From Eledone cirrhosa (taxonomy: Eukaryota): a DNA stretch of 64,000 bases. The position numbers were made by a program, and so were the translations under genes. The notes under the pieces are model-generated. The model worked only from the letters and a program-made list of their open reading frames with translations. It ran no database searches and was not told where the DNA came from. Shown piece by piece: positions 28,168 through 57,566 of this stretch (positions within the stretch are counted from its first letter, which is position 1; every line of letters begins with the position of its first letter). The stretch lies in contig OZ024742.1 in NCBI GenBank assembly GCA_964016885.1, positions 361,832,001 through 361,896,000 of the forward strand, in the 5' to 3' direction.

Positions 28168-29162
28168 GAGTTATCAGCATAGAGGACTGTGTTCAGATGC
28201 AGAAAAACAACCTGCACAAATACGTGACTGACAGTAAGGAGCCAATGCTCAGAATTGTACTGAAGGAGAGGACAATAGACCATGGGGTGTCCAAGGAGGA
28301 AATAACAGCAAGGAGGAAGAGCAACCTTCATGAAAAATCCCTTCATAGTACCTTCTTTGAGAAAACGGAATCCAGAAATCCACAGATATGGAACTGGTTA
28401 AAAAGAGGAGACCTTAAAAAGTCTACAGAAGGAATACTAATGGCTGCGCAAGAGCAGGCACTCATAACGAAGTGGGTGAAACACCATATTTACAAGGAGG
28501 AGGCTAGCCCACTGTGTAGGATCTGTGGAGAGAGAGAGGAGACTGTGGCACATATTGTATCCGAGTGTAAACACCTAGCGCAGACTCACTATAAAGGCTG
28601 GAGACATGATGTGATGGGCAGGGTGATCCACTGGCACCTATGCAAAGTAAACAATTTACCACATTCTGAGAAGTGGTATGAGCATAAGCCAGAGTCGGTG
28701 ATAGAAAACGATCAGGTGACGGTGCTATGGGATTTTAGGATACAGACGGACAAGAAACTGGAACACAATAGACCTTACCTGGTGGTTTTCGACAAGGAAA
28801 AAAGATCATGCCTGATTGTAGATGTAGCCTGCCCATTTGACACGAGAGTGCAAAAAAAAAAAAGAGTGGGAGAAAATTAACCGATACCAGGACTTAAAGT
28901 GGAAGTTAAAAAGTATTTGGAACTGCCATGAAGTCAAAGTGGTCCCAATTGTCATAGGCGCACTAGGTACTATCTCAAAGATTTCCAAGGATGGTTAAAG
29001 AAAATTAGTCCAGCTCCGCCTTTTGGAACACTTTAAAAGCATGCTTGCTGGGAACAGCAAGAACCCTCCGATACGTCCTGAATATCTGTGGCTGCAGGTA
29101 GCGGCTTGATATTCATTTCAACAAACTTTCCAGTTAAATAACATCAATGACTGAGACTCAAA

Positions 29163-29218
<56 letters not shown>
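28168..29218 (+). mobile_element. R4/Dong-type family A, 5'-truncated diverged copy with (TAA)n tail
   Basis: ORF 28143-28880 has CRICG...HIVSEC and the RLE region. Frameshift in an A-run at ~28860. 3' UTR matches 33170-33245. Followed by (TAA)n. Confidence 0.9.
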
Positions 29219-32200
29219 TCGACATCACCACCACCACTGTCTCAGTATCGCTAACGCCGCCAGTCTCCCACTTCCCTGCTGGCTGCTACTTCCACATTAT
29301 AGAATTCCTACTACTAACAAAGAGGAAGGCATCAAAATATATAGATAGACCCAAAAGAAAAAAGAAAAAACAAACAACAAAACCAAAGCAGCACAGCAAC
29401 AACAGCAAAAAACGAGAAAAACAAACAGAGAAAAACAAAAACAAAAAAAAGAAACCCCAAAAACGTAAAGAAAATAAGAATGAAGAGAGAAGCAGGCGGA
29501 CGGACAGAGAAGAGGGGGGAAAAAGTAAAACTTAAAAAACTAAAACTAAGTCAGACATTCGAACACTACATTACAATGAAACTTATGCTTATTCATTTCT
29601 GGGGTCCTTTCTGCCTGTGTGTTTGTTTGTTTATGTGTGTTCGTATACAGCGTGGTGATAATGCTACACAAGGGCCAAGTGGGATGGCGGATCCACAGAT
29701 GGCTATGTAAACATACATTCGCCAATCCTCGATAAGAGTGTTTAAATATCGAACATAAACAGTTCGAATAACGGTGAAATGGAGACTAGAACGTCATGTG
29801 ACAGACTCTCACCCAACAGGTGCCCCCTGGCTCAGCAGCAGGAACCTGACTGTCAACCAAATACTGCTGATGTTGGAGGAAGGAGAAGAAGGAAAGGGGC
29901 CAGAACCAACTGGACGAAAGAATTGAATAGAACTGTTATGCAATGCTACCTGAAAAGTAACCCCAAGGAGAGGGGCTACAGGAGACGGATGCATAACATC
30001 TGGAACGAGATTGGTTTATTTAAATTAGATGAACAAAAATTGGCCGGGCAGGCTCGGGTAATAAGAACTAATGGGTGGATAAGCGAGCTGGAACTGGAGG
30101 AACTGAGCAGAGAGAATGGCTTGGAGATGGCGGGTGTAGTATGCCAGACAAGCGAGCCGGTGGGAAATGAAGGTGAGGAGGTCCTGAGAACGGAGGAACC
30201 ACCCGAAGCAGACAATGATCTGAGTACTGAGATAAATAATACCTGGAACAGAGATACGGCCACTGAGGAGATGAATGCTGACGAGCTAGGACAAGATTCG
30301 GTTGACATCCTAAATTTAGTGGTAGATGAATTGAACAATGATAGTGGGAGACCTATGAACCTAAGATTTGTAGACAGGAAAAAGTTAAAAGAAACAACAG
30401 CTAAGGTAAACAAAGTCATCCCATACCTTGAGGCGAGGAGCCTTCACCAGTGCAACAATATCCTCAGAGCAACAGCAAATACGGTGAGGAAACTACTTGG
30501 TATAAAAGCGAGAGGAAACAACAGACAAGAAAGAGCAGAGCCGTGGTGGAAGAAGCGACTGAGTGGGCAAATCGGGGAAATGAGAAATGACATAGGAAAG
30601 CTTGAGTCACTACTGAATGGGACACTAAAAAACATAGGCACTAAAAATAGACTGGAAATAAAATACAAAACTAGGAGTAAAAAGCTAAATATTATCATAG
30701 AGGAATTGAAGCAACGCATTGTAGCAAAGAGTGCAAAAATCAGGCGATACGAGAACAGAGTCAGCCAGTATAAACAGAACCGCATGTTCGACAACAACCA
30801 GAAGATGCTGTTTGGACAGCTTGAGGGCAAAGAAAGAGGCAACGACTTGATCCCTGGGGCGGAGCAAACTAAAACATTCTGGAGAGGAATATGGGAGCAG
30901 GATGTTAGACACAATGCCCAGGCAGGGTGGATTGAGACAGTACAGAGGGAGATCGGTGAGCAGGCACAGCAACAGACTGATTTGAGTATCACAGTTGAAA
31001 CTCTTAAGGGGCAAGCCAAAAAACTAACCAACTGGAAATCACCAGGCCCAGATGGTGTGCAGGGGTATTGGATTAAACATCTAACATCCCTCCACCCGAA
31101 GCTGACGGCCATGTTCAATGACTGCTTGGTGTCGGGTGAGGTGCCAGAGTGGTTGACAAAAGGTACCACAGTTCTGATAATGAAAGACCGAATCAAGGGT
31201 AATGATGTTACCAACTATAGACCTATCACATGTCTGCCCGTAATGTGGAAACTGTTGACGAGCATTGTGTCTGAGGAAATCTACCATCACCTCCACACAA
31301 ACAACTTGTTACCGGACGAACAGAAAGGATGCCGAAAGAAGTCACGTGGTACAAAGGACCAGTTGCTTATTGATAAGATGGTAATGGGGAATTGCAGGAG
31401 GAGACACACTGATCTTGCCATGGGATGGATAGACTACAGAAAGGCATTTGACATGGTGCCTCATTCCTGGATCACCAAAAGCCTGGAGATCTTCAGGGTG
31501 GCAGATAACATCAGACAGTTGCTAGGCAGGAGTATGGGGTCCTGGGAGACAGAGTTGACATCAACTGGAGTATCCTTGGGAAGCGTGAAGATCAAGAGAG
31601 GTATCTTCCAGGGAGATAGCCTGTCCCCTCTGTTGTTTGTCCTTGCCCTGATGCCCTTGACCATTATGCTGCGAAAAGTGAGAGCAGGATACAAGTTGGG
31701 AAGGGGAGAGCTTACCATCAATCACCTCCTCTTCATGGACGATCTTAAGCTCTTCGGGAAAAGTGAGAAGGAGTTGGATGTGCTTGTTGACACTGTCCGT
31801 ATTTTCAGCAGTGATATATGTATGCAGTTTGGTATTGGTAAATGTGGAGTCATTGTGATGAAGAGGGGTAGGTTGAGCAGAAGTAACGGGATCCAGATAC
31901 CAACAGGTGAGATGATAAAGGAAATTGACTCTGAGGAAGGATACAAGTATTTGGGCGTTCTGGAGGCTGATGGCATAAAGAACAAAAAAATGAAGGAATT
32001 GTTAAGAACTGAATACATTCGGAGAGTAAGGAGCGTATTGAAGTCACATCTGAACAGCAGAAATGCCATAAGCGCAGTAAATTCCCGAGCTGTGTCTATT
32101 ATTAGGTACAGTGCGGGAATTCTGAGATGGAATGTTGCTGAACAGAAAGAAATGGATAGGAAGACTAGTAAGCTATTGACTATCTACAACATGTTCCACA

Positions 32201-33286
32201 AGAGGAGTGATGTCGATAGACTCTACCTAAGGAGATCTGAGGGTGGAAGAGGTCTTATCAGCATAGAGGACTGTGTTCAGATGGAGAAAAACAACCTATA
32301 CAAATACGTGACCTATAGTAAGGAGCCAATGCTCAGAGCTGTACTGAAGGAGGGGACAGTAGGCCAGGGGATGTCCAGGGAGGAAATAACATCAAGGAGG
32401 AAGAGCAGCCTTAAGGGAAAACCCCTTCATAGTACCTTCTTTGAGAAAACTGAATTTAGAGATCCACAGACATGGAACTGGTTGAGAAGAGGAGACCTCA
32501 AAAAGGCTACAGAAGGAATGCTAATGGCTGCGCAGGAGCAGGCCCTCAAAACGAAGTGGTTGAAGCACCATATCTACAAGGAGGAGGCCAGCCCACTGTG
32601 CAGGATCTGTGGAGAGAGAGAGGAGACTGTGGCTCACATTGTGTCCGAGTGTAAACACCTAGCCCAGACCCACTATAAGGGCTGGAGACACGATGTGATG
32701 GGCAGGGTGATCCACTGGCACCTGTGCAAAGTAAACAATCTACCACTTCTGAGAAATGGTATGAGCATAGGCCAGAGGCGGTGATGGAGAACAATCAGGT
32801 GAAGGTGCTGTGGGATTTTAGGATACAGACGGACAAAAAACTGGAACACAATAGACCTGACCTGGTGGTTGTGGACAAAGAAAAAAGATCGTGCCTGATT
32901 GTGGATGTGGCCTGCCCGTTCGACACGAGAGTGCAAGAGAAGGAGAGGGAGAAAATTAACCGATACCAGGACCTAAAGTGGGAGGTGAAAAGGATTTGGA
33001 ACTGCCATGAAGTCAAAGTGATCCCGATTGTCATAGGCGCACTGGGGACTATCTCCAAAAGTTTCCAGGGATGGTTAAAGAAAATCGGCCCCTTCACGCT
33101 TTTTGGAACGCTTCAAAAGGCATGCTTGCTTGGAACAGCAAGAACCCTCCGATACGTCCTGAATATCTGAGGCTGCAGGTAGTGGCTTGATATTCAATCC
33201 AACGGACTTTCCAGTTAACCAACATCAATGACTGAGATTCAAGGAATAACAGTGACGATAATAATAATAATAATAATAATAATAAT
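29219..33286 (+). mobile_element. R4/Dong-type non-LTR retrotransposon, family A copy 1 (near full length)
   Basis: 5' UTR shared with 53524-54070, single long ORF, short 3' UTR, (TAA)n at both ends. Confidence 0.93.
29779..33170 (+). pseudogene. RT + CCHC + restriction-like endonuclease polyprotein, one 1-bp frameshift at ~32746
   Basis: KSPGPDG, NYRPITCL, IDYRKAFD, GIFQGDSLSP, LFMDDLKL, CRICG-HIVSEC, RPDLVVVD..IVDVACP..K. Joins ORFs 29779-32784 and 32724-33170. Confidence 0.93.
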
Positions 33287-33289
33287 GTT

Positions 33290-36200
33290 TAATTCCAATT
33301 TTACGGGAATATGTCAACACAATATATATTAAACATACGAATACAAACTCATAGATACTACATATTACAAAACTCGGTAACGACAACGCCACCGCCGCCA
33401 CCACTCCATCCATCATTGCTACCACTATCCCATCACCGCCGCCACCACTCCTTCATTGCTACCACCACTATTCCCCTGTTAACTTGAGAGAGAAAGGGGA
33501 AGGTGGCGGTATCACTAGACAAGGGAGAGGCTAGCAAAAGATATAAATAGATTGACTTAGTGACCTGGCCACCGGCCAAACGTCAACATCAACAACTATG
33601 GGACTGCTGGCTCACCCCTTCCTCACCAACAATATAAAAAGCCCCGGCACCACCACCGACATAGCCAACAACAATAACAGGCAACTTCAGCAAAAAGTAT
33701 ATTATATTATTGTAATGCACTGGGTGATTGCTGGCCTTGTGCCTGGAGTGGAGACAATTATTAATAATTTCATTCTTAAGCCACGCAATGCTCACATTAA
33801 GGAACCACTCATGATAATAACAATTTAAAAAAACAACAAAAAGAAAACCCCGTGACCAAGAAATACCGGGATGGCGGCGGCGGGGAATAGCCGTATCTCT
33901 AGGGGAGAACGACCCCTCTAGTCTTGGTTGACACTCGTTCTACAAGTGGTAACACGAAATGATTACCCCTTGGCGGATAAGGATAAAACGCAACAAAATA
34001 AAGTAAATGTCTAATGATAAAATCTCATACCGGATCGGCCGTCACCCGGGAAAAAAGGGCCGCGTCCCTCAGAGAGGAACCAGACTGGGGTCGAAAAATC
34101 AGCTAATGGTTCAAACCTTCCCATCACTTCGGAGCTGGAGACCTCCCATAACCGGATACTCCTACTGTTGGCCCTCCATGCTCACCACCAAGAAATCCAA
34201 AGAAAAAGAGAGAAAAATGGTCAAGGGAAGATAATAAAGAAGTCCTTGAGGCTTTCTACACTGCCATGTACTACCCATCAAATACATCGAATACAGAACA
34301 GACATATATCAACTGGAAAAAGAAACATCCCGAAAACAGAGGCTATATTGACAGTAACAAACTAGCCAATATACGAAGAAATATTGTAAGAAAAAAGTTA
34401 CTAACTGATATAGAAATTGATCAGATCAAGCTATTAGCACAAAGTCAGCGAAGGGAAAATGAAACATGTGTCAGTGAAAACGAGGTAAATTGTAACACTT
34501 CGAATCCCAGGGTTGAGGCGGAATCACTGGCAACAGAACAAATTAAAGAAAGGATCGAAAAAGTGGAGGGAGTGCATGCTCAAGATGAAACTCCAAATGA
34601 AAATAATGAGATCGTAAATGATAAAGAAATGAATGAGAATGAACTTGCCAACTTGAAGGATGAAATTATGATCGAATGGATGAAAATGAAAGAATCTGAC
34701 ATGGGGCAACGAGACACCCTCCCTAAGATCCAGAACTCCAAACAGAATCGAAAGATAATACACAAGACTAACATAATTCTCAAAAACATTATCATCACAA
34801 ACAAACTAAACATTACTGATTTAAATCATCTCTATTATGCATCGGCTAAAGTCACCACTCACTTATGTGGAGTGAAGATGAAAAAACAAAGGAATTCCCA
34901 CAAGAAATCTACTTGGCAAGAGAACATCAATCGCCAAATAAACCTTCTCCGATCTGACATAGAAATTTTAACAAACTATAAAGTAGGTGAACATGTTAAA
35001 CAAACTAAACTTAGAAAATTGAAAAAAAACTACAGTATAAAATCAACATGTGACATAGACATGCTGATAGAAATAATCAAGCAAAAAGTGTCGGCCAAAG
35101 CTGCTCGTATAAGGCGCTTTGAAAAACGATCTAGATTCTATAAGGACAATAATATGTTCAAAAACAACCAAAGAAACTTCTACAGAAAAATTGGTAAGTC
35201 AACAATAACTGGTAAATCAATACCACCCAAGGAGGAAGTGCAAGAATTCTGGGAAAAGATCTGGGCCGAAGAAAAAGTTCATAACATACATGCCCCATGG
35301 ATAGACAGACAAATGAAAGATACAGCTCACCTTGAGGAACAAATATGGGAAAATATAACAGTTGAACAGTTGCGCTTGGCTCTAAGAAAAACCAGCAAAT
35401 GGAAATCCCCAGGAAAAGACAAAATACAAAACTTTTGGATAAATACCTTCACAGAGTCTCATGAGCTGTTAGCCCAACTTTACAATGAAATAGTTAAGGA
35501 GCCAGAAAAGATACCATCATGGCTAGTTAACGGCATTACATTCCTGCTTCCGAAGAATGATGAGACAAACAATCCCAAAAATTACAGACCGATAACTTGC
35601 TTGACCACAATATATAAAATTTTAACATCAGTCCTAACTGAATACACATATGACCACCTGATAACAAATGACCTATTTCCCATTGAGCAGAAAGGGTGTA
35701 AACGAGGCTCATATGGCTGTAAGGATCAGCTTCTGGTTAACAAAATGATACTGGAAGATTGTCATAATAGACACAAAAATCTATCGATTGCTTGGATAGA
35801 TTATAAAAAAGCATTCGATAGTTTGCCACACAGTTGGATTGAAAAATGTTTAGAGATTTTCAAAATACCCCCCGTTGTCAGGAGGTTTTTGTCATTCAGT
35901 ATGAAGACATGGAAAACGACACTCCTTTTCAATAATGAAACAAAATCACTGGAAGCTGGAAAAGTTAATATTAATTGTGAAATTTTTCAGGGTGACTCTT
36001 TATCACCGCTTTTATTCTGCATCGCATGTATACCATTAAGTAAAATGCTCAATGAAACAAAACATGGATATAAAGTCTATGACAAAACCATTAATCACCT
36101 GTTCTACATGGATGACCTGAAACTATTTGCAAAAAATGATGAACAATTTCAATGGCTATTATCTACTGTGGAGCAGTTCAGTGATGACATTAAAATGGAG

Positions 36201-37491
36201 TTTGGACTAGATAAATGCGCCAAAGCAACGTTCACCAGAGGAAAGCTGCTGAAGAGTTCAGACATTAATCTTGATCGGGGGAAGGTGATAAGAGAACTTG
36301 ATCAAGAAAAAACTTACAAATATCTAGGTGTTTGCGAAGGAGACGGAATCAAGCACTCGACAATGAGGGAAAGGATAAGGAAGGAATGTTACCGCAGAGT
36401 AAGAGCAATCTTAAGAACGGAATTGAATGCAAGGAATAGGATCGATGCCATAAACACGCTTGCCATACCAGTCGTAACCTACAGTTACAATGTCATCAAC
36501 TGGTCAAGCACAGAGATCCGTAGGCTCGATACAAAAATTCGAAAACTCTTAACCATGCACAGAATGCATCACCCTAAGGCAGATATAGATAGAATATATC
36601 TCCCTAGGAAAGAAGGAGGACGTGGGTTAATCCAGTTAGACATTGCGTTGAAAACTGCAACAATTGGATTATCTACATATCTAAGGGAATCACATGATTG
36701 GATGATCAAACTCGTTTTGAAACACGAAAGCATCAAAAGATCATATTCCATTACAAAAGATGCACAAAGATACAGTAATGGACTACAAATTTCAGAAGTC
36801 CCATTTACTGCTGAAATGGAAAACACAGAAAAAGCAAAGCAGGTAAAAGTAACTGCAAAGAAAGAACTGCTACAGAAACTGGCTAAGAAATGGCAAGAAA
36901 AGCCTCTGTATGGAAAATACCCAGAGCGAGCTAACAATCCTGATGTTGACAAAACTTTAACCCATCAGTGGTTGGCATCCTCTGGACTGAAATCGGAGAC
37001 TGAAGGACTGATTATATCAGCACAAGATCAGTGTCTGCCAACAAAAAATTACCAAGCCAACATAATAAAAAATGGATGCAGCCCATTATGCCGTGTATGC
37101 AAAAAACAACCAGAGACCATTGACCATATAATTTCAATGTGCAGTCCTATAGCTCCAACCGAATACCTAAACAGGAATGACAGAGCTGCACAATACATAC
37201 ATTGGATAATGTGTAAGCATTTTGACCTGCCCCATCAAAAGAATTGGTGGGAGCATCAACCACCTCCCATACTTGAAAAAGATCACATCTCAATCTTGTG
37301 GAACTTTAGCATCCAAACAGACCGAAAAATAGATGCAAATAGACCTGATATAATATTGAAGGACTTTAAAAAGAGGGTATGCCTGCTAATTGATATGTCT
37401 GTTCCAATAGACAAGAATGTATTTATAAAAACATTTGAAAAATTGAGCAAGTATAAGGACCTGGAGATAGAAATTGGAAAAATGTGGAAAT
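33290..37491 (+). mobile_element. R4/Dong-type family B copy 1, 3' end lost at a SINE
   Basis: Follows the (TAA)n tail of A. Homology to copy 2 stops at GGAAATTG (~37492), where an antisense S1 SINE begins. Confidence 0.9.
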
Positions 37492-37526
37492 TGCATTACT
37501 GGTACTTTATTTTATCGATCCTGTAA
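34266..37526 (+). CDS. Family B RT + CCHC + RLE protein (C-terminus truncated; true N-terminus probably further upstream)
   Basis: 1086 aa ORF with KSPGKD, NYRPITCL, IFQGDSLSP, FYMDDLKL, CRVC-HIISMC, RPDIILKD..IDMSVP. The same frame extends upstream (KKREKWSREDNKEVLEAFY). Confidence 0.9.
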   Translation: MYYPSNTSNTEQTYINWKKKHPENRGYIDSNKLANIRRNIVRKKLLTDIEIDQIKLLAQSQRRENETCVSENEVNCNTSNPRVEAESLATEQIKERIEKVEGVHAQDETPNENNEIVNDKEMNENELANLKDEIMIEWMKMKESDMGQRDTLPKIQNSKQNRKIIHKTNIILKNIIITNKLNITDLNHLYYASAKVTTHLCGVKMKKQRNSHKKSTWQENINRQINLLRSDIEILTNYKVGEHVKQTKLRKLKKNYSIKSTCDIDMLIEIIKQKVSAKAARIRRFEKRSRFYKDNNMFKNNQRNFYRKIGKSTITGKSIPPKEEVQEFWEKIWAEEKVHNIHAPWIDRQMKDTAHLEEQIWENITVEQLRLALRKTSKWKSPGKDKIQNFWINTFTESHELLAQLYNEIVKEPEKIPSWLVNGITFLLPKNDETNNPKNYRPITCLTTIYKILTSVLTEYTYDHLITNDLFPIEQKGCKRGSYGCKDQLLVNKMILEDCHNRHKNLSIAWIDYKKAFDSLPHSWIEKCLEIFKIPPVVRRFLSFSMKTWKTTLLFNNETKSLEAGKVNINCEIFQGDSLSPLLFCIACIPLSKMLNETKHGYKVYDKTINHLFYMDDLKLFAKNDEQFQWLLSTVEQFSDDIKMEFGLDKCAKATFTRGKLLKSSDINLDRGKVIRELDQEKTYKYLGVCEGDGIKHSTMRERIRKECYRRVRAILRTELNARNRIDAINTLAIPVVTYSYNVINWSSTEIRRLDTKIRKLLTMHRMHHPKADIDRIYLPRKEGGRGLIQLDIALKTATIGLSTYLRESHDWMIKLVLKHESIKRSYSITKDAQRYSNGLQISEVPFTAEMENTEKAKQVKVTAKKELLQKLAKKWQEKPLYGKYPERANNPDVDKTLTHQWLASSGLKSETEGLIISAQDQCLPTKNYQANIIKNGCSPLCRVCKKQPETIDHIISMCSPIAPTEYLNRNDRAAQYIHWIMCKHFDLPHQKNWWEHQPPPILEKDHISILWNFSIQTDRKIDANRPDIILKDFKKRVCLLIDMSVPIDKNVFIKTFEKLSKYKDLEIEIGKMWKLHYWYFILSIL

Positions 37527-37870
37527 GGATGAAAGGCAAAGTCAACCTCGGCGGGATTTGAACTCAGATCGTAAAGGGACGTCACTATGCTGGAAAGCAT
37601 GGCGTCCGACCCTCTACCGATACTGCCAATCCACCGCTCTCCAATGATAATAATAATGATAATAATAATGATGATAATAATAATGATGGTTTCTTATATA
37701 GGCACAAGGCCAACAATTTTGGAGGAAAGGGAAACTCGATTAAATCGACCCCAGTTTATTACTGGTGCTTTATTGTATCCACTCCGTAAGGATGAAAAGC
37801 TAGCCTAACCGGCGAGATTTGAACTCGGTATATAAAGAAACGTAATGTTGTCCAACGCTCTACCTACACT
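37492..37870 (-). mobile_element. Two antisense S1 SINE copies (37492-37640, 37688-37870)
   Basis: Reverse complement of 39017-39235. Confidence 0.8.
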
Positions 37871-38047
37871 TCCACCCTGCCCTTCTGCTAATAAAGAATA
37901 ATAAATGGTAATAATTATGACAATGATAATGCGGCTTAGTTATTGATATCGATATAAACTATTGACATCTATGTATGGAGACAACTTAAAAGTTTATTGA
38001 AATGAAATATTTAAAGATTAAAAATTAAACAATTTCCGATTCACATT

Positions 38048-39235: not shown

Positions 39236-39393
39236 ATTATCATTAGTCTTATTTTATATTGCATCTCTCTCACTGTACGACGGAGCCTAGCTCTATATTC
39301 ATTGGGTAGGTGCAGTGTTTTCTTTCAATATCTTATGGTATTGTATTGGTAATGACTGAGTTAACGAGTTCTCGTTTTATATCCGATTTTCAG

Positions 39394-40752: not shown

Positions 40753-40812
<60 letters not shown>

Positions 40813-43800
40813 TTTCATTTATTGGCCACAAGGGCCGACATATAGGGGACAATACAAAAGACTGGGACAGTGGGGTTTTACAGAAAAATCGAGTAAACAA
40901 TATGAATAACAATAACAAAGTAACAAGAAAATTACAACAAGAAAAAATTCCCCAATAGGGGTGATGACCACCCAGGGTTCGCTCAGGTACCCCACCAATC
41001 CCGAACGACCCGACGCTTCGAGAGCACCCTGGAAGGGTACCCCTCTCCTCCTCAAATTTACCCACCTACAGCCGATTGACCAGAGTAGGCCCACTCACAC
41101 GGGCCATTCTCGACACATTCACCCACCTTTCAGCCAATGTACTGGGGGCAGCACTTCTCTCTCCACCCTCATCTTCCTTTCCAAGTGAAACTTGAAAAAG
41201 TTGATGAGGGATTGGCCGAAGAGAAAAGTGTCTGTCTTCAGTCCTTTCAACCTCGTCCACCATACAACCTCTTTCGCTACTGCCACCAGACAGAGGAAAA
41301 TTGCCTGCCCTTCCTAGCCAAAAGAAGGTGGCGAGTCGATCTTCACTATGGACTCGGCCGAAAGCCGGATCCGTTCTACACGCGACAACAGCTGTTCGAC
41401 ATAACTCCACAAGTCAGTAATGCACGGACACTGGACGAGTGCGTGCAGAACGGTTTCGTCGCTCTGCGCGCATCTCAGGCAGGTCCGTCTGACAGCACTT
41501 CCGTGCCTGTAGAGTTTATCTCTAACCGGCAATGCCCCTCGGTAGCACTGCCAAGCGAGGGATTTTTGGAAATTATCCATCGTCCCCGGCTCGAAAGTCC
41601 TCCGGAACAGACTGGTTAGTTCGACTTCCTCGACACCCAGAGCCTCTCTGGGTGCGTCATCGCACTTTCCCACCACTAATCCTCTATAGAACTCGAGAGT
41701 GGAAGTTCCACTGACCGCATTGCCCGCCTGGTAGAGGGCAGTGAGTGCCTGGCAACATTCCAGATGCCAGTCACCCAGTCTTGGTCTCTTCTTGACCCAG
41801 GACTGCAGCTCAGTCAAAGAAACGAGCTGCGGAAAGGCCCGTCTGACAAACAGTGACCACACCTGTTCACCGTTTAGGCAGAATATCTGGGGACGCTGCA
41901 GCCTCAGCGCGTGTCTGCACATCATTAGCCACGGCATGCCCAGCCCTCCACGTAGAGGGTGCTGGCAGCAGATGGACCGCCTCACCAGCGGAACCTGACC
42001 CCTCCTTTGAAGAGGAGCCGCTCCAAGATGGCGAGGCGCGAACGGAGGCAAGGGACGACGGTCAGACGGTAGTAGATGACGGACTCGATATACGCATTCG
42101 CCACCTCCGCCCGACCTTTCAGTGATAGCTTCCTCCCAGCCCATTTCTGGGTGAGACTGGCTACCCTGCCCTTCACCTCGTCCCAATTTGTATCCACCTG
42201 GAGGTCTGGCCCGACCGAAACTCCAAGCAACTTTACCGGTCCGTCCGTCCAGCGCCTAACGACGCTGTTGGACGGCATGGACTTGCCTCTCCAGGTGCCG
42301 AGTTGCAAGCCCACCGACTTTTCCGAGGTTAGTTTTGCTCCCGTCAACCTTTCATATTCCTCCAATAAGTTGCCGACCACCTCGATTTCTGAGTGTCCGA
42401 CACCATCACGGTGATGTCGTCCACATAAGCCGACACCGCCTTTCCACGTCCCGGTTCGAGCGGGATGCCCTGCAACAGCTCCAGCTTCCGCAGTAAAGGC
42501 TCGAGAGTCAATACGTACAGAAGGGAAGAGAGAGGGCACCCTTGACGGACCGATCGGGAGAGCTGAAATGGTTCCGAGACGTGGCCATTAACTTTGACCA
42601 CCGAGCGTGTGCCAATGTGCATTGCAGCGATCCAGCTGCTTTAAGGACAAACTCCAGATACCGATGGCTGACCCTATCGAATGTTTTCGAATGATCTAAA
42701 TTGATCAGTGCCCCGCCGAAGCCAGGTTTACACCTTACCCTCTCTATGATGTATCGCATGAGGTGGAGATTATCGTGTATGGACCTGGCTGGGATTGCAC
42801 AAGTTTGCGCCTCCCCAACCAAATCTCCGACGACAAGCACCAATCTCTTTGCTAACACCTTGGCCAAAACCTTAAACTCTGTGTTGAACAGTGTTATGGG
42901 CCTGAAGTTGTCTAATGAATCCCTCTTGTTCTCGTCTTTCCTTATCAGCATCACCACTCCCCTGCTCACAGAACTGGGAATACTCTCATTCTGCTGCCAG
43001 TATGGGAGATCGGAGAACAAGTGTGGCATATTTACGTAAAGCTCGTAGGGCAGGCCATCCAAACCGCGTGACTTGCGCCTCATGCAACCGATAAGGGCGT
43101 CCTGAATTTCGGCTGAAGTAATCGGCCTTTCGCAACGCTCAGCGTCGATCGTCGAGATGCGCGGCAAGCCGTCAAGGAAGGGACTGAAATCCGCTACTGT
43201 TTCCGACTCGCCACTCTCCCCGAACAACTGAGCAAAGTGCTGGCGAAAGGCCTCACACATTCGCTTGGAATCGCTTATCTCGTGTCCGTCTCGGTCTGCC
43301 AAAGACCGAATTGTGGTTTTATTACCCCGCTGCGCCTCCGCCACGCGGGCCCACTGAACAGCTTTGGTTCCCTTGTTTCTCAGCGCACGTGCTGTGAATA
43401 TGCAACCTTCGCGTTTCGCATTGAAGAAATGGTCTAATGCCATTCTCGCCGCTAGCACGTCAGTTGCAATGCCACTACAAATAGCCTCGTCTAACTTATC
43501 TACCAGTTCCTCCTCCTTTCTATTTTTCTCTAACACTAGTTCTTTGCTGAACTCTATCGAAGTTACTCTAATCTCTCTTTTGAGAGCCCCCTCCCCCCAT
43601 CTGTTGTTGATGATCCCCCCTGTCAACTTTTGCTTAACTAAATTGTTGACTCGGTCCCTGTAAGCCTTACGTGCCGGAAATGACATGTTCAGCTTCCAGT
43701 AACCCTGTCCCAACCTACCCGTTTTATCTAGGTCGACTAAACAGATCACAAATTTGTGATCTGAATAGGCGACCGTTTTAAAAATTGCGCACCCTACACT

Positions 43801-43835
43801 ATTTCTATCTATTTTCCTAATCAAGATCCTGTCTA
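40813..43835 (-). mobile_element. Tx1/L1-clade LINE, 5'-truncated and frameshifted
   Basis: End of APE (IDRIL...YSDH, GYWKLN), RT (NFRPITL, KTFDRVSH, RQGCPLS, AYVDDI), CCHC (CLRC...HALVQC). AATAAA at the 3' end. (TAA)n on both sides. Confidence 0.9.
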
Positions 43836-43878
43836 TAATAATAATAATAATAATAATAACAACAATAATAATAATAAA

Positions 43879-44342
43879 AAGAAATGGATAGGAAGACTAG
43901 AAAGCTATTGACTATCTACAACATGTTCCACAAGAGGAGTGATGTTGATAGACTCTACTTAAAGAGATATGAAGGTGGAAGAGGTCTTATCAGCATAGAG
44001 GACGGTGTTCAGATGGAGAAAAAGCAGTCTGCACAAATATGTGTCTGACAGTAGAGAGCCAATGCTCAAAGTTGTATTGAAGGAGAAGACAATAGACCAA
44101 CGGATATCCAAGGAGGGAATAACAACAAAGAGGAAGAGCAACCTCCATGAAAAACCCCTTCATAGCACCTTCTTTGAGAAAACAGAATCCAGAAATCTAC
44201 AGATATGGAACTGATTAAAAAGAGGAGACCTAAAAAAGGCTACAGAATGAATGCTTATGGCTGCACAAGAGCAAGCCCTTACAACAAAGTGGGTGAAACA
44301 CCATATTGACAAGGAGGAGGCTAGCTCACTGTGTAGGATCTG

Positions 44343-44433
<91 letters not shown>

Positions 44434-45032
44434 CTGTGGCTCACATCGTACCCGAGTGTAAACACCTAGCCCAGACTCACTATAAAGGCTGGAGACATGA
44501 TATAATAGGAAAGGTGATTCACTGACATCTATGCAAACTAAATAATTTACCATATTCTGAGAAGTAGTATTAGCATAATCGCGAGCAAGTGATAGAAAAC
44601 GATCAAGTGAAGGTGCTATGGGATTTCAGGATACAGACAGGCAAGAAATTAGAACACAATAGGCCTGACCTAGTGGTCTTTGATAAGGAAAAAAGATCGT
44701 ACCTGGTTGTAGATGTAGTCTGCCCCTTTGACACAAGTGTACAAGAAAAGGACGAGAAAATTAACTGGTTCCAGGATTTAAAGTGGGAGTTAAAAAGGAT
44801 TTGGGACTGTCATGAGATCAAGGTTGTCCCGATTGTCATAGGAGCACTAGGTACTATCTCAAGGAGTTTTCAAAGATGGTTAAAGAACATTAGTACAGCC
44901 CCCTATTTTGGAACACTTCAAAAGGCCTGCTTGCTGGGAACGGTAAGAACCCTCCAATACGTCCTGAATATCTGAGGCTGCAGGTAGTCTGAGACTCCAA
45001 AAATAACAACAATAACAATAATAATAATAATG
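43879..45032 (+). mobile_element. Family A, old 5'-truncated copy with stops and an internal (GA)n expansion
   Basis: Homologous to 32146-33185. Ends YVLNI* followed by a (TAA/CAA) tail. Confidence 0.9.
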
Positions 45033-47522: not shown

Positions 47523-48684
47523 TTCAGTCTCCCTCTACACAACTTCACTCACAACGCCTGGATCAACCCGAGGCTATGATAAATGACATATAATCAAGAT
47601 ACCAGGAAGTAGGATCGATCACTTAGCTAATGATTGAGAGGTGTATCTCTTAACCAAGCCTCAGTCACATCCATACATGTATATATAGTCATTAAGGTTG
47701 CGGACTAAGTGATTTAAAACCATTTTAATACCACCCTTCCCTTTCAGATACAATGCTGTTGATTTTAAAATGCTAGCATTTTTTCAACTCTCTGACGCGT
47801 ATGTGTATATGTGTGTGCGAGTGTTTATGTGCATATGCATACATTTATATGTATGAGTATATGAATATAAATGTGCAAACACAGACACACTTACAGAAAT
47901 ACACAATCACAGACATGCATTCATACAAATACACATACATTCACACAAACACACACACGCACACACACACACACACACACATATGGTGTGACGGACGGAG
48001 AGAAGTCGCTCAAATTTATATATAGATTACTATTTAACTAAAACACTTTTACCATACTATTATATAAGAACTTTTGCGAAGTTTTGTTCTAAGCACCAAC
48101 TAATATAATAGTCATAACAGTCGTAGTGACACCAAACATCTGTCCATTTTGAAGTGTTTATATTTGTTTAAACATCTCATATGATAATTTACGCAAGAAC
48201 TTCCCGTGAGTTAAGTTCCAAACGTGAAATAAATAATGGAAAAGTAGAATAAGAACATATATATATAGAGAGAGAATTCTCAGGCACTTGCACGTGCATT
48301 TCACGAGTAAACTGTTTCGTAAAGTTCAACAACAAAATTAAATTATATTTTCAGAGTGATTAAAGTTATATACTAGTGGTGCTGGACATCCACCAGGTTC
48401 GACACATACTGCTTCGTTGATCGAAAACAACTGGAATATTCGTCTATCGGAATCAGAACCGATGGAGATGCAACGATATCTTGTAATAATTCCTCGCAAC
48501 AGGCGTCATTCTGAAACACCATCACCACAACCGCCACCAACAACACTATCATCACCACCAAAAGCATCGCCTGCACCGCCACCACCACCACCACCACCAC
48601 CACTATTATCATCACCACCATTAGAACCACCAACAACGGCACCATAATCATCAGTTATTTCCTACCATCTAATATATATATATA

Positions 48685-48784
48685 TACATACATACATACA
48701 TACATACATACATACATACATACATACATACATGATGGCTGCCCCCTCGTTATCGAGTATGGCCATTGCACGAGGAGAAAGGAA

Positions 48785-48903: not shown

Positions 48904-51900
48904 TACACATATACACACACACATACATTAATAACAATAATAATAATAATAATAACAACAATAATAATAACGACAACAACAATAATAATATACATATACA
49001 TATATATATACACACACACGCACACACATAAGCATATCTACACACACACACACACACACACGATAGCAACTAACAGCGCTGCGATCGAATGTGGCTTTTT
49101 AGCCCAGCCAATGATCTAAAATGTCTTGCACAGAGTCGGCAACCAAAACATTCACTGGGAATAGTCGGCTGTGGTTGGAGTTCGTGTACTTTTGCATGTC
49201 GTTTGAGCCCTCCTACTGATTTACATTCTCTACCACATGTTTGGCAAGCATGATGAGTAGCATCTCCAACAGCAGCCTGGTAGTCATCCACTGGTCTTAC
49301 TTTATGACTGCGAAGATGGCTTTCGAGTCCAGCTTTGCTTAGGGAGAGTCTCGCACATACGCTGCATGTCAGCACCATAGGAGGACCCTCGCCGTCTGGA
49401 AGTGCAACAGCAATGCCCTTCCTCACATCCCGCTTTACTTTCTCGTATGCGATTCGAGATGCCTCAAAGGCAACTTTTCCCTCATATACAGTCTTTCTCC
49501 ATTTATTACGATCAGCAGCAATATTCTCCCATGTATCAGCAGAGATGTTAGCGTCTTTCAGAGAGGCTTTCAAGGAATCCTTATACCTCTTTTTTGGTTT
49601 ATGTGGCGGTCGTTTTCCTTTAACCAACTCTCCATAAAAGAGTTGTTTTGGTATTCTAGAATCCTTCATCCTGGCAAGGTGACCACTCCAACGGAGTCGT
49701 TGCTTAAGCACAAGAGCTTCTATACTGTCACACATAGAGCTTTCCAAAATCTCGACATCACTGATGTGGTCCCTCCAGTGAACGCCATAGATCCGTCTGA
49801 GACACATCTGATGGAAACGCTCCAATTGCTTAAGGTGGTGTCGATATGTGACCCAGGTCTCGCAGGCATAAAGAAGACAAGAGAGCACACATGCCCTGTA
49901 CACCTTTACCTTTGTCCTCCTGCATATGTCTCGCCGACCCCAGAGTCGCCTTTCTAGCTTTCCGAAAGCATCACTTGCTTTCCTAATCCTAAGTGAGATT
50001 TCACTGTCAAGGTTGCTGTATCGATTGACAGTGCTTCCCAGGTAGACAAACTGATCAACCACTCCAAGTCGTTTGCCATACACATGGATGTTTGGTTCAG
50101 TGTACTGCTTACCAGGGGCAGGTTGGTACATGACGACGGTTTTCTTGAGACTGACAGTCAGACCTAGGGCAGTGCAAGCGTCAGAAAATGCATTCAAAAT
50201 GTGCTGCATATCACTCTCTGTGTGCGCTACAAGATCGCAATCATCTGCATACAAGAGGTCTCTTATGATTGATGTAAATACTTTTGTCTTCGCAGCAAAG
50301 CGCCTGATGTTAAATATGCTGCCTGAGGTTCGATATCGGATGTAAACACCATGCTCGCAATTCCTGAATGCAATACAGAAAACCATTGCAAAGTATATGG
50401 CAAACAGGGTCGGTGCTGGAATATCCCCCTGTTTCACTCCATTTTTTACTGAGATAGGCTCCGACATGTTACCCCCGACATTAACCCGAGCCTTCATGTC
50501 GTCATGGAAAGACCTAACTAAAGAAAGGAACTTATCAGGGCAACCAAGTTTCTGGAGAATCTTCCATAATGCATCTCTGTTAACAGTATCGAAAGCTTTT
50601 GTCAGATCGACAAAAACCTGATACACATCCAAGCCTTGTTCCATGCACTTCTCCTGGAGCTGTCTAGCTGAGAAGATCATATCAGTAGTGCCGCGTCCAG
50701 CACGAAAACCAGATTGACTTTCAGGAAGAACACAATCTGCAATGTGTGTCAGCAGACGGTCCAGAAGCACCCTACATAAAACTTTCCCTACGACAGAAAG
50801 CAATGATATACCTCTGTAGTTCCCACAATCGTTCCTGTTACCCTTTCCCTTGTACAAGACCACCATTACTGCATCTCTCCAGTCCTCAGGTACGGATTCA
50901 TTAGCCCATATCCTGCCAAAAAAAGAGTGAAGATGTTGCAGGAGTCTCTCACCACCATATTGTAGGAGCTCAGCATGTATGCCATCCATACCTGGAGATC
51001 TTCCACTGTTCAGCTTCGAAATAGCCACTGCAACCTCCACAAGCGTCGGAGGTTCTGCGAGAGCTACTTTCACAGGACTTTCTGGAATGAGATTGAGGAA
51101 ATCTTCACTGACGACAGACGGCTGATTCAAAAGATCATCAAAGTGCTCTCGCCACCTTCGTAGAATTCCTTGTGAGTCACGAAGAAGTTCTTTGCCATCC
51201 TTGCTGCGAAGCGGTGTCACCAGAGAAGAAGGCGGTCCATAAACCTCACGCAAGAGACTGTACAACAGCTTTGTGTTATTGGAATCAGACGCAGTTTGTA
51301 TCTCACCAGCCTTCTCACTCCACCACTGATCCTTCATCTGAGAAAGACTCCGCCTAACACGTGATTTTACATCCCTCAGTTCCTCATGCAACGTATTCCT
51401 CTCCTGTGGTTTTGCCGCCAAGTAGCGTGACAGAGCACGCCTCTTATCAGCCAACAAGTCTTCTATATGTACATCATTCTCATCAAACCAGTCCTGATGT
51501 TTCCTCTGCGCCAATTCCAGAACACGCCTGCCTACATCATAAACCGTCTTTTTAAGGGTCGGCCAATCCTCACCAAGATCTGCAGCCTGCATCTCTTCTT
51601 CCAATGTCCTCTTCACATTTTTATCCTTAAGACGAGCAGCATTCAGTCTTTTGGGCAGGGCAACACCAGGAGCCCGGATTTTACGTTTAGTGATTAGTTT
51701 CACTTTTGCGCGTACCAGGCGGTGGTCCGTCCAGCACTCAGCTCCACGAAGAGCACGAACACACTACACATACTGTCTGTCACGCATCCTGACTAGGACG
51801 TAGTCCAAAAGATGCCATTCCTTAGATGCAGGATGCATCCATGTGGTCTTGAATTTGTTCTTTTGTTGGAACATGGTGTTAGTAACACACAGATCCAGCT

Positions 51901-52610
51901 CCTCACACATCTGCAGCAGGAGCATACCATTGCTGTTACACTTTCCCACCCCATGCCTTCCGATTACATTCCATGTGTTAAAATCCCTACCCACTCTAGC
52001 ATTAAAGTCACCAAGCACGATGACTTGGTCTGCCTGAGGGATATTTCTTAAAACACCTTTCAAGGCATGGTAAAAGGACACCTTTTCCTCATCGACAGAA
52101 CTCATAGTTGGAGCATACAGACTCACCAGGGTAGCATATCTTCCCTTGTCCAGCGGAACTCTCATGGACATAAGACGCTCACTAATCCCTACTGGGAATT
52201 CTTCTAATTTGTTCACAAGCACAGTCTTAAAAAGCAAATCCTACCCCAGCCTCTCTTCTGGTTCCTTCATCTCTTCCTTTCCAGAAGAATGTATATTCTC
52301 TAGCCTCGTCTCAGATAAAGCCACGATGTCGAGATCGTAACGTCGAAGCTCCTTTGCAACAAGAGAGGTCCTTCGTTCAGGACGCCCCAAGGAATCCCTG
52401 TCAAGCAGCGTCCGTACGTTCCAGCAGCCAAGACTAAATGCCTTGTTTGGCTCTATTACAATGGCACGATGACGAGCGGGCCCAGGCTGTGATAACCCGG
52501 GGCCCCTGCCCTTATTGCCAATGATCTTTTTTGTTCCAGAACCTAAATTGCCAATTATCTCTTTTATAATGTTCTGGAACATCATTGAATTGGAAAAAAA
52601 AAAAAAAAAA
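48685..52610 (-). mobile_element. RTE-clade LINE body and 3' end (5' UTR continues at 60152-60350)
   Basis: APE pieces (GCWNVRTL, ALSETR, LGDFNARVG, LDYVL, TDH), RT ORF, and 3' terminus GGCCATACTCGATAACGAGGGGGCAGCCATCATG(TATG)n. Confidence 0.92.
49070..51703 (-). pseudogene. RTE reverse transcriptase with three C-terminal C2H2 zinc fingers (upstream APE part disrupted: 51764-52237, 52241-52440)
   Basis: SPGMDG, NYRGISLL, FVDLTKAFD, GVKQG, LYADD, RLRWSGH, three CxxC..H..H-like fingers. Confidence 0.92.
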
Positions 52611-52620
52611 AGGAATAATA

Positions 52621-52669
<49 letters not shown>

Positions 52670-55600
52670 GAAGAAGAAGAAGAATAAAGGGAAGAAGACG
52701 CACGAGGTGACGGAGGTCATGAAATCGCTCCCGTAAGTTTTGAATTTTTAACATATTTAAATCATTTGTGAAATAACAACTCTTAGTACAAATGCTACGT
52801 AAAGCACCCGGCTTGAGCCCCCAAAAAATTCGGACCCAAAATATATTGCTATAAGGCTCAAATATTCAAATATTCAACTTTGTATTGTACACTGTATATC
52901 CAAATAAAAATGGCTATAAATGGAAGAAGAAGAACCCCCCCACCTCCTCTCCTCTGGCTACACTATATAGGACAGCTAAACTCACCAACACCAGAAACTA
53001 GATACACCACCCACCCCATCATCTGTGTACACTAAACACAACAGCATTTTCACCTTCACCGCCACCGCTCACTACGGCCATCATTACCACCACTATCCCA
53101 TCACCGCCGCCACCACCCCTTGACTCCTTCACTGCTGCTGCCACCGCTACAGCACCATCACTACAGTAATACGGCTCAAATATTCAAATATTCAACTTTG
53201 TATTGTACACTGTATATCCAAAAAAAATAAAATGGCTATAAATGGAAGAAGAAGAACCCCCCCCCCTCCTCTCCTCTGGCTACACTATATAGGACAGCGA
53301 AACTCACCAACACCAGAAACTAGATACACCACCCACCCCATCATCTGTGTACACTAAACACAACAGCATTTTCACCTTCACCGCCACCGCTCACTACGGC
53401 CATCATTACCACCACTATCCCATCACCGCCGCCACCACCCCTTGACTCCTTCACTGCTGCTGCCACCGCTACAGCACCATCACTACAGTAATACGGTCGC
53501 ATCACCGCCACCACTGCCTCGGTATCGACATCACCACCACCACTGTCTCAGTATCGCCAACGCCGCCAGTCTCTGCTGGCTGCCACTTCCACATTATAGA
53601 ATTCCTACTACTAACAAAGAGGAAGGCATCAAAATATATAGATAGACTCAAAAGAAAAAAAGAAAAATCAAACAACAAAAGCAGCACAGCAACAACAGCA
53701 AAAAACGAGAAAAACAAACAGAGAAAAACAAAAACAAAAAAAGAAACCCCAAAAACGTAAAGAAAATAAGAATGAAGAGAGAAGCAGGCGGACGGACAGA
53801 GAAGAGGGGGGAAAAAGTAAAACTTAAAAAACAAAAACTAAGTCAGACATTCGAATACTACATTACAATGAAACTTATGCTTATTCATTTTTGGGGCCCT
53901 TTCTGCCCGTGTGTTTGTTTGTTTATGTGTGTCCGTATACAGCGTGGTGATAATGCCACACAAGGGCCAAGTGGGATGGCGGATCCACAGATGGCTATGT
54001 AAACATACATTCGCCAATCCTCGATAAGAGTGTTTAAATATCGAACATAAACAGTTCGAATAACGGTGAAATGGAGACTAGAACGTCATGTGACAGACTC
54101 TCACCCAACAGGTGCCCCCTGGCTCAGCAGCAGGAACCTGACTGTCAACCAAATACTGCTGATGTTGGAGGAAGAAGAAGAAGGAAAGGGGCCAGAACCA
54201 ACTGGACGAAAGAATTGAATAGAACTGTTATGCAATGCTACCTGAAAAGTAACCCCAAGGAGAGGGGCTACAGGAGACGGATGCATAACATCTGGAACGA
54301 GATTGGTTTATTTAAATTAGATGAACAAAAATTGGCCGGGCAGGCTCGGGTAATAAGAACTAATGGGTGGATAAGCGAGCTGGAACTGGAGGAACTGAGC
54401 AGAGAGAATGGCTTGGAGATGGCGGGTGTAGTATGCCAGACAAGCGAGCCGGCGGGAAATGAAGGTGAGGAGGTCCTGAGAACGGAGGAACCACCCGAAG
54501 CAGACAATGATCTGAATACTGAGATAAATAATACCTGGAACAGAGATACGGCCACTGAGGAGATGAATGCTGACGGGCTAGGACAAGATTCGGTTGACAT
54601 CCTAAATTTAGTGGTAGATGAGTTGAACAATGATAGTGGGAGACCTATGAACCTAAGATTTGTAGACAGGAAAAGGTTAAAAGAAACAACAGCTAAGGTA
54701 AACAAAGTCATCCCATACCTTGAGGCGAGGAGTCTTCACCAGTGCAACAATATCCTCAAAGCAACAGCAAATACGGTGAGGAAACTACTTGGTATAAAAG
54801 CGAGAGGAAACAACAGACAAGAAAGAGCAGAGCCGTGGTGGAAGAAGCGACTGAGTGGGCAAATCGGGGAAATGAGAAATGACATAGGAAAGCTTGAGTC
54901 ACTACTGAATGGGACACTAAAAAACATAGGCACTAAAAATAGACTGGAAATAAAATACAAAACTAGGAGTAAAAAGCTAAATATTATCATAGAGGAATTG
55001 AAGCAACGCATTGTAGCAAAGAGTGCAAAAATCAGGCGATACGAGAACAGAGTCAGCCAGTATAAACAGAACCGCATGTTCGACAACAACCAGAAGTTGC
55101 TGTTTGGACAGCTTGAGGGGAAAGAAAGAGGCAACGACTTGATCCCTGGGGCGGAACAAGATAAAACATTCTGGAGAGGAATATGGGAGCAGGATGTTAG
55201 ACACAATGCCCAGGCAGGGTGGATTGAGACAGTACAGAGGGAGATCGGTGAGCAGGCACAGCAACAGACTGATTTGAGTATCACAGTTGAAACTCTTAAG
55301 GGGCAAGCCAAAAAACTAACCAATTGGAAATCACCACGCCCAGATGGTGTGCAGGGGTATTGGATTAAACATTTAACATCCCTCCACCCGAAGCTGACGG
55401 CCATGTTCAATGACTGCTTGGTGTCGAGTGAGGTGCCAGAGTGGTTGACAAAAGGTACCACAGTTCTGATAATGAAAGACCGAATCAAGGGTAATGATGT
55501 TACCAACTATAGACCTATCACATGTCTGCCCGTAATGTGGAAACTGTTGACGAGCATTGTGTCTGAGGAAATCTACCATCACCTCCACACAAACAACTTG

Positions 55601-57566
55601 TTGCCGGACGAACAGAAAGGATGCCGAAAGAAGTCACGTGGTACAAAGGACCAGTTGCTTATTGATAAGATGGTAATGGGGAACTGCAGGAGGAGACACA
55701 CTGATCTTGCCATGGGATGGATAGACTACAGAAAGGCATTTGACATGGTGCCTCATTCCTGGATCACCAAAACCTGGAGATCTTCAAGGTGGCAGATAAC
55801 ATCAGACAGTTGCTAGGCAGGAGTATGGGGTCCTGGGAGACAGAGTTGACATCAACTGGAGTATCCTTGGGAAGCGTGAAGATCAAGAGAGGTATCTTCC
55901 AGGGAGATAGCCTGTCCCCTCTGTTGTTTGTCCTTGCCCTGATGCCCTTGACCATTATGCTGCGAAAAGTGAGAGCAGGATACAAGTTGGGAAGGGGAGA
56001 GCTTACCATCAATCACCTCCTCTTCATGGACGATCTTAAGCTCTTCGGGAAAAGTGAGAAGGAGTTGGATGTGCTTGTTGACACTGTCCGTATTTTCAGC
56101 AGTGATATATGTATGCAGTTTGGTGTTGGTAAATGTGGAGTCATTGTGATGAGGAGGGGTAGGTTGAGCAGAAGTAACGGGATCCAGATACCAACAGGTG
56201 AGATGATAAAGGAAATTGACTCTGAGGAAGGATACAAGTATTTGGGCGTTCTGGAGGCTGATGGCATAAAGAACAAAAAAATGAAGGAATTATTCAGAAC
56301 TGAATACATTCGGAGAGTAAGGAGCGTATTGAAGTCACATCTGAACAGCAGAAATGCCATAAGCGCAGTAAATTCCCGAGCTGTGTCTATTATTAGGTAC
56401 AGTGCGGGAATTCTGAGATGGAATGTTGCTGAACAAAAAGAAATGGATAGGAAGACTAGGAAGCTATTGACTATCTACAACATGTTCCACAAGAGGAGTG
56501 ATGTCGATAGACTCTACCTAAGGAGATCTGAGGGTGGAAGAGGTCTTATCAGCATAGAGGACTGTGTTCAGATGGAGAAAAACAACCTATACAAATACGT
56601 GACCTATAGTAAGGAGCCAATGCTCAGAGCTGTACTGAAGGAGGGGACAGTAGGCCAGGGGATATCCAAGGAGGAAATAACATCAAGGAGGAAGAGCAGC
56701 CTTAAGGGAAAATCCCTTCATAGTACCTTCTTTGAGAAAACTGAATTTAGAGATCCACAGACATGGAACTGGTTGAGAAGAGGAGACCTCAAAAAGGCTA
56801 CAGAAGGAATGCTAATGGCTGCGCAGGAGCAGGCCCTCAAAACGAAGTGGTTGAAGCACCATATCTACAAGGAGGAGGCTAGCCCACTGTGCAGGATCTG
56901 TGGAGAGAGAGAGGAGACTGTGGCTCACATTGTGTCCGAGTGTAAACACCTAGCCCAGACCCACTATAAGGGCTGGAGACACGATGTGATGGGCAGGGTG
57001 ATCCACTGGCACCTGTGCAAAGTAAACAATCTACCACATTCTGAGAAATGGTATGAGCATAGGCCAGAGGCGGTGATGGAGAACAGTCAGGTGAAGGTGC
57101 TGTGGGATTTTAGGATACAGACGGACAAAAAACTGGAACACAATAGACCTGACCTGGTGGTTGTGGACAAAGAAAAAAGATCGTGCCTGATTGTGGATGT
57201 GGCCTGCCCGTTCGACACGAGAGTGCAAGAGAAGGAGAGGGAGAAAATTAACCGATACCAGGACCTAAAGTGGGAGGTGAAAAGGATTTGGAACTGCCAT
57301 GAAGTCAAAGTGATCCCGATTGTCATAGGCGCACTGGGGACTATCTCCAAAGGTTTCCAGGGATGGTTAAAGAAAATCGGCCCCTTCACGCTTTTTGGAA
57401 CGCTTCAAAAGGCATGCTTGCTTGGAACGGCAAGAACCCTCCGATACGTCCTGAATATCTGAGGCTGCAGGTAGTGGCTTGATATTCAATCCAACGGACT
57501 TTCCAGTTAACCAACATCAATGACTGAGATTCAAGGAATAACAATAACAATAATAATAATAATAAT
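52670..57566 (+). mobile_element. Family A copy 2, probably full length, long 5' UTR with a ~320 bp tandem duplication
   Basis: Starts after (TAA)n(GAA)n. Tandem units 52855-53172 and 53173-53493. Near-identical to copy 1. Ends in (TAA)n. Confidence 0.9.
54071..57462 (+). pseudogene. Family A RT-RLE polyprotein with one 1-bp frameshift at ~55772
   Basis: ORFs 54071-55816 and 55789-57462. Intact where copy 1 is broken, and vice versa. Confidence 0.93.

Follow-up and report, generated by a model that had tools for sequence, protein, structure and literature searches.

Two divergent families of R4/Dong-type retrotransposons without long terminal repeats (non-LTR), here called A and B, stand head to tail on (TAA)n tracts at two loci of a 64,000-nucleotide stretch of Eledone cirrhosa DNA (assembly GCA_964016885.1, contig OZ024742.1, positions 361,832,001 to 361,896,000 of the forward strand; hereafter the window). 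Our results make it likely that both families target (TAA)n and leave TAA tails, and that later copies stack in these tails as independent insertions. All copies lie on the + strand, and in the three joints between them, A' to A1, A1 to B1 and A2 to B2, the 5' end of one copy sits flush on the TAA tail of the copy before it.

At locus 1 the 5'-most copy, A' (28171..29165, +), is an old, 5'-truncated member of family A which retains the end of the thumb, the CCHC, the restriction-like endonuclease (RLE) and the 3' untranslated region (UTR), and which diverges from A1 by 10.4%. The (TAA)17 tract that follows (29166..29216, +) is both the tail of A' and the 5' junction of A1 (29217..33244, +), a near full-length element whose open reading frame (ORF; ~29779-33170) is broken by a single frameshift near 32746. 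The A1 tail (33245..33286, +) begins with degenerate units, continues as (TAA)9 and doubles as the 5' junction of B1. This element has a composite 5' UTR of 720 nt (33287..34006, +) and, from the start codon at 34007, an ORF (34007..37493, +) that encodes an N-terminal helical domain, the reverse transcriptase (RT), thumb, CCHC and an RLE with PD..D, interrupted by a frameshift near 34155. The frameshifts of A1 and B1 are not present in the X1 contigs. B1 ends at 37493, within the endonuclease, and is thus tail-less; it is joined there to the first of two tandem tRNA-like short interspersed elements (SINEs) with (ATT)n tails (37492..37931, -). The truncation is private to B1, because other contigs continue with B2-like sequence at the break: in run X5, 15 contigs carry B2-like letters past this point, and an X1 contig extends 305 nt beyond it, where B2 has 304 nt remaining. 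An earlier note on this DNA had described locus 1 as A'-(TAA)n-A-(TAA)n-B, which stands as to order, tracts and strand, except that B1 has lost its 3' end and tail.

At locus 2, A2 (53500..57536, +) is likewise near full-length, with a frameshift near 55772, and its tail with (TAA)5 (57537..57566, +) forms the 5' junction of B2 (57567..60135, +). B2 keeps an intact 3' end and a (TAA)4 tail (60136..60148, +). As the earlier note had claimed, it is 5'-truncated: it begins at the equivalent of B1 position 34070, and 783 bp of the 5' end are gone relative to B1. That note had missed its internal deletions of 1117 and 44 bp, as well as a further A-family copy, A3, described below. The arrangement it had proposed here, (TAA)n-A-(TAA)n-B-(TAA)n, holds on the + strand for A2-(TAA)5-B2-(TAA)4, but the leading (TAA)15 (52625-52669) lies 830 bp upstream of the part of A2 that is common to A1. 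The intervening segment (52614..53499, +, tract included) is probably an extended 5' region of A2. It contains a 322-bp tandem duplication (52851-53496) with a TATA-like word and an ACC-rich module; these repeats are possibly promoter monomers of family A.

The domain content of A and B supports their being single-ORF RLE non-LTR retrotransposons of R4/Dong type. Each has one ORF with RVT_1 and neither an apurinic endonuclease (APE) domain nor Exo_endo_phos, and the RLE motifs R(H/N)D, PD..D..P and K..KY.DL are present in A2, B1 and B2. Between RT and RLE lies a CCHC zinc knuckle whose residues C978, C981, H990 and C995 are invariant in a 47-row alignment; zf-RVT gave a weak match in 28 of 31 members. 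Moreover, a structure model of B1 (predicted local distance difference test, pLDDT, 85) has R2 proteins as its best PDB fold matches (E 3.6e-32), and R2 proteins are also the closest solved proteins by sequence search (E 1e-24; identity 16-19%). The R4/Dong identity given in the earlier note is supported by RVT_1 without APE, the RLE motifs and these fold matches. As regards the N terminus of B, a four-helix domain was modelled (pLDDT 91) which agrees with, but falls short of proving, the divergent N-terminal Myb reported for R4/Dong (PMC7998251). Its top structural rows included Sap1, NgTRF, Zeste, ISWI SANT and TRF1, all weak (Z 4.1-5.8); Foldseek returned no match at E<=0.001, and the Myb clusters of the Atlas (0.75-0.86) are leads only. 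The alignment consensus contains no N-terminal Cys/His motif, and there is no rRNA match around the copies (28000-61000).

A quick IQ-TREE analysis (434 RT columns, 74 of 76 rows, the relatives being unnamed) assigned A to a subclade of 35 rows (support 100) and B to a different one of 12 rows (96), both apart from APE-type long interspersed elements (LINEs) and both with TAA-tailed loci inside them. With an amino-acid identity of 34% between A and B, which points to an ancient divergence, this supports the claim that two divergent families share one target. In both families the contig depth climbs in the 3' direction, as would be expected from 5' truncation; note that the summed depth serves solely as a gradient and is not a copy number. 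An Rfam scan of 28000-61000 found no ribozyme, only microsatellite-driven miRNA matches below threshold, and a scanner for ribozymes like that of hepatitis delta virus (HDV) gave no match, including none in nine full-length relatives, so the scanner itself is unvalidated.

The surviving 3' ends in the window all carry TAA (5/5). In relatives from other hosts, surveyed with an alignment-based scan of 81 loci whose metagenome part comprises the best 80 of 363 (an earlier metagenome scan with A alone gave no matches), (TAA)3 or longer lies within 450 nt of 22 of the 31 informative 3' ends, and TTA of 2. In a rival reading without sequence targeting, the elements merely end in TAA and cluster where a region tolerates or attracts insertions; the window is indeed crowded with unrelated LINEs, SINEs and microsatellites, the SINEs forming tandems of their own. 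We consider this highly improbable in view of the 5' ends. TAA is found at 4/6 5' junctions in the window, and three of these four tracts are the tail of an upstream Dong copy; the window was chosen for this feature, and its counts give no genome-wide rate. Among relatives, (TAA)3 or longer lies within 150 nt of 8 of the 18 5' ends truncated within the ORF, with TTA at one, compared with 3 of 356 background windows carrying a TAA run. Insertion into (TAA)n with fixed polarity, the hallmark by which the Dong lineage is recognised, is therefore what we observed, and the TAA targeting assumed in the earlier note is upheld by both data sets.

Trains of Dong-type copies were also found outside the window. 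In the relatives, 35 junctions had a flank of 20 nt or more (10 further junctions were too short), and five of the 35 unite two such copies: L004 and L013, which join members of the same family, L005, which joins different families, L022, where an old 76% piece lies ahead of a full-length copy, and L051. Since the relatives are short-read contigs, this rate is biased, and joints within one family that lie close to the end of a contig may be artefacts. The 3' flank match of L001 (E 0.006, control 0.02) and the short flanks of L010 and L024 (E 0.72 and 0.044) were not counted. L001 (2400-6369) is a Dong-type element flanked by (TAA)17 and (TAA)97 in a contig from a viral collection; the contig is probably eukaryotic DNA that was deposited among the viruses. 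In this clade, trains are thus a by-product of general occurrence, formed at a minority of junctions and recurring in unrelated hosts.

The same order in the two loci of the window could also have arisen in one event, if an A-(TAA)-B unit had been segmentally duplicated or co-mobilised and the second copy had then suffered deletions, including that of 783 bp at the 5' end of B2. The two pairs are similarly diverged, A1 and A2 by 47 differences in 4026 aligned bases (1.2%) and B1 and B2 by 37 in 2263 (1.6%). The earlier note had taken the differing 5' ends as favouring independent insertion over duplication. This was overstated: duplication then deletion also fits, and since B2 carries two other deletions the 5' ends are weak evidence. 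The codon test, which compares synonymous counts with a spectrum-preserving null, is more informative. Between B1 and B2, 18 of 37 coding changes are synonymous where 9.9 are expected (p=0.003; dN/dS 0.26-0.38), an excess not expected after neutral duplication. Given this excess, B1 and B2 descend separately, from source elements that diverged under selection. The same test gave 47 synonymous changes of 93 between A1 and A' (28.5 expected), a count reached in 0 of 5000 simulations. The junctions and flanks, examined in both loci, differ, and no flanking sequence is common to both. Moreover, locus 2 cleanly interrupts a dispersed repeat, X: the block 48774-60151 splits one copy of X into a left half (48676..48773) and a right half (60152..60352; strand not given for either), which match adjacent parts of an intact copy near 46080. 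Finally, with two families, the same order has an even chance of appearing twice. A single event is, on this evidence, quite improbable, and independent insertion, as the earlier note had it, is favoured for the B copies. For the A copies the test is silent: 13 of 33 changes between A1 and A2 are synonymous (9.7 expected, p=0.14), as in neutral divergence and as a duplication would have it. A kappa-based synonymous signal for this pair (p 0.012-0.087) was lost under the spectrum-preserving null.

The behaviour of the A pair is one of several points that weigh against stacking by independent, targeted insertion. The 5' junction of A' has no TAA run, and that of A2 is uncertain, its (TAA)15 not adjoining the 5' end shared with A1. 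Among the relatives, TAA is missing from 10 of the 18 5' ends that are truncated and from 9 of the 31 3' ends; therefore, either the specificity is loose or junctions decay. Most of their junctions (30/35) are not trains, and the short-flank joints L004 and L013 are possible assembly artefacts. The tree, for its part, contains no named Dong, R4 or Rex6 row.

The further claim that each insertion leaves the next target is likely, on indirect evidence. It has to be set against the view that Dong adds no TAA and only splits existing microsatellites, which slippage or the antisense tails of SINEs and LINEs had produced. Both halves of a split tract would remain targetable, so that trains would form without feeding themselves and tracts would shrink with each round. 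In keeping with such splitting, the tracts within the trains are short (17, 9, 5 and 4 units), and at least six TAA tracts of the window (~8 independent sites) are something other than Dong tails; several of them are the (ATT)n tails of minus-strand SINEs or of a LINE. A3 lies in such a non-Dong tract. This old, 5'-truncated A-family copy (43836..45032, +; the element itself 43873-44998) has TAA tracts on both sides, is bordered by a LINE on the minus strand and by a short 3' end of SINE type, and diverges from the other A copies by 11-17%. Two observations argue against splitting alone and lead us to regard it as unlikely. The tails of A1, A2 and A3 all open with the same degenerate units ahead of pure TAA. 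In addition, where locus 2 interrupts repeat X, the two intact copies of X in the window are free of any TAA run (these are paralogues, not the ancestral allele). What has to be given up is that Dong tails are the sole seeds, since antisense SINE and LINE tails supply TAA and A3 uses one. Two details of these copies may be added. Within A3, a short GA run in the CCHC-coding region has grown to (GA)45 (44345-44433), a microsatellite born inside the element. The A1 tail differs from the A2 tail by three A-to-G changes inside 6 nt (33245-33258); RNA editing caught by reverse transcription is a speculative cause, and ordinary microsatellite mutation may also account for them.

Cleavage specificity, the RNA origin of the tail and the order of events are what we infer in the following scheme for self-feeding trains. 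By analogy with R2-type target-primed reverse transcription, the RLE would nick the TTA strand of (TAA)n and prime reverse transcription from the 3' end of the element, so that each copy would land with TAA on its sense strand. Part of the resulting tail would be copied from element RNA and part would be left-over target. The tail would be a valid target for either family, and later copies, often 5'-truncated, would land flush on it and build head-to-tail trains. The seed would have been an older Dong tail at locus 1 (A'), a tail formed at an AT-rich site at locus 2 and an antisense SINE or LINE tail for A3. The locus 1 train grew most simply from the A' tail, because the oldest copy is the 5'-most and has no TAA on its 5' side. 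Stacking of this kind is a predictable, largely expected consequence of the known targeting biology.

The composite 5' UTR of B1 deserves separate treatment. One X1 contig, from another organism, is unbroken across 33525-35025 with 8 differences and 4 gaps, so that most of this UTR (at least 480 of its 720 nt) is a feature of the family; the ~700 bp of 5' UTR ascribed to B1 are thereby substantiated for the greater part. Three parts can be told apart within it. An ACC-rich module (~33390-33470) also occurs upstream of A2 (64 nt at 86%; local score 171 against <=140 in 30 shuffles), and run X5 contains a multi-copy contig uniting A-like and B-like versions of it (29260 to 33436). A SINE 3'-end piece follows (33712-33768). 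The third part is a conserved RNA-level motif (33848-33986) that matches the UTRs of L017 (233-364) and L013 (95-212), with scores of 106 and 99 where the null did not exceed 68, and that reaches E 5e-11 with a model built without B; it has no Rfam match and a folding z-score of -0.9. Both L017 and L013 belong to the A subclade. The motif stands directly at the TAA junction in L013 and ~570 nt inside the element in B1. We also asked whether B had acquired its UTR from the A subclade. This is unproven, as L003, a member of the B subclade, has the same UTR immediately 3' of the motif; the L003 contig starts past the motif itself. On present sequences, the motif may have been captured between neighbours or retained from an ancestor, and both fit the data.

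A wider role for the trains is conceivable, which we put forward tentatively and hold to be unlikely. They could be points at which 5' parts are exchanged, read-through fixing the upstream neighbour as a new 5' UTR and the B UTR being such a mosaic. At the same time, Dong, with TAA in sense, and the SINE with its partner LINE, with ATT in sense, would supply targets to each other on opposite strands of the same microsatellite. Such a mixed landing pad would polarise the local TAA tracts. Separately, by eye, the 5' ends of L004 (80-180), L009 (10-100) and L018 (105-190) resemble the heads of tRNA-derived SINEs, and captured Pol III promoters are a possible explanation.

The remaining elements place the two loci in a microsatellite-rich region dense in LINE and SINE pieces. 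Runs of (TAA)3 or longer number 20 across the window, every one of them on the + strand, and a (TTA)3 run does not occur. A 5'-truncated, RT-encoding LINE (40813..43834, -), presumably Tx1/L1-like, carries an (ATT)n tail which reads as (TAA)18 on the + strand (40728-40812). Its 3' end (40813-40850, -) resembles the 3' end of the tRNA-like SINE (39195-39245, +) over ~55 nt including the tail, and it may be the partner LINE of this SINE. TTA tracts lie at both of its ends, and it may target (ATT)n with a polarity opposite to that of Dong. Copies of the SINE, each with an (ATT)n tail, are likewise arrayed head to tail, the next copy beginning directly after the preceding tail; besides the pair that adjoins B1 such arrays lie at 38739-39245 (+) and 38330-38690. 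ARAGORN found no tRNA. Upstream of A2, an APE-RT LINE of another kind (49070..52590, -), which we take to be RTE-like, is nested in an A/TAA-rich tract. It is near-complete, being 5'-truncated near its start and has C-terminal C2H2 fingers; a GG-A(13-17)-TAA-like tract lies at each of its borders, and the two could be a target duplication. Two ORF remnants at 130-909 (+) and 2592-3143 (-) have no Pfam match; they resemble the GIY-YIG endonucleases of Penelope-like elements.

The A/B trains are a real and well-preserved example of an expected phenomenon, and they do not overturn current understanding. It is already established that (TAA)n is the target of Dong in animals as different as insects, molluscs and cnidarians (PMC7998251; PMC3812793), and that tandem non-LTR elements arise by double insertion driven by site preference (PMC5932611; PMC4640811). 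Active Dong-R4 families have been reported from octopuses: Octopus vulgaris has five families of recent activity, with near full-length insertions numbering 1129 (PMC13282606), and O. bimaculoides contains a Dong with a full ORF (PMC9115989). Within molluscs, R4-Dong has been reported almost only from cephalopods (PMC10294476). We found no account of mixed-family Dong trains in a literature in which subscription papers, supplements and repeat libraries were poorly covered. If the trains are general, the most active LINE group reported in the octopus would steer itself into non-coding microsatellites and its own tails, which would help to explain its high copy number with limited damage as well as hot spots of transposable elements. 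It would also be a warning about repeat libraries, in which these families may be fused or wrongly trimmed. Among our PDB matches there is no solved structure of a zinc-finger-less RLE element recognising (TAA)n, and the young, near-intact A/B pair could be used to study how this recognition works.

Among known elements, Dong of Bombyx mori, DongAg, DongBg of the snail Biomphalaria and the ostracod Dong1/2, which are R4-clade elements specific for TAA, resemble A and B in their single ORF with RT and C-terminal RLE, in a helical N-terminal domain (modelled here for B) without zinc fingers and in their insertion in (TAA)n (PMC7998251; PMC3812793). What differs here is that two families with 34% identity are stacked in mixed trains. 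Bombyx Dong has a 5' HDV-like ribozyme (PMC3774820), whereas none was shown at the A and B 5' ends with our unvalidated scanner. The available portions of the octopus Dong-R4 accounts (PMC13282606; PMC9115989) do not describe the target or a tandem arrangement. R2 of B. mori, zebra finch and turtle shares the RT-CCHC-RLE layout, but A and B are without its N-terminal zinc fingers and rDNA target and are 16-19% identical to it. The joints themselves are like those of R1 in rDNA, jockey, DMRT1B, telomeric elements and Utopia in U2 genes, where differently truncated, independent insertions meet tail to head or tail to internal sequence (PMC5932611; PMC4640811). Unlike in those tandems, the target of A and B is a microsatellite which would be remade by the element's own tail, and which is common to both families and to antisense SINE and LINE tails.

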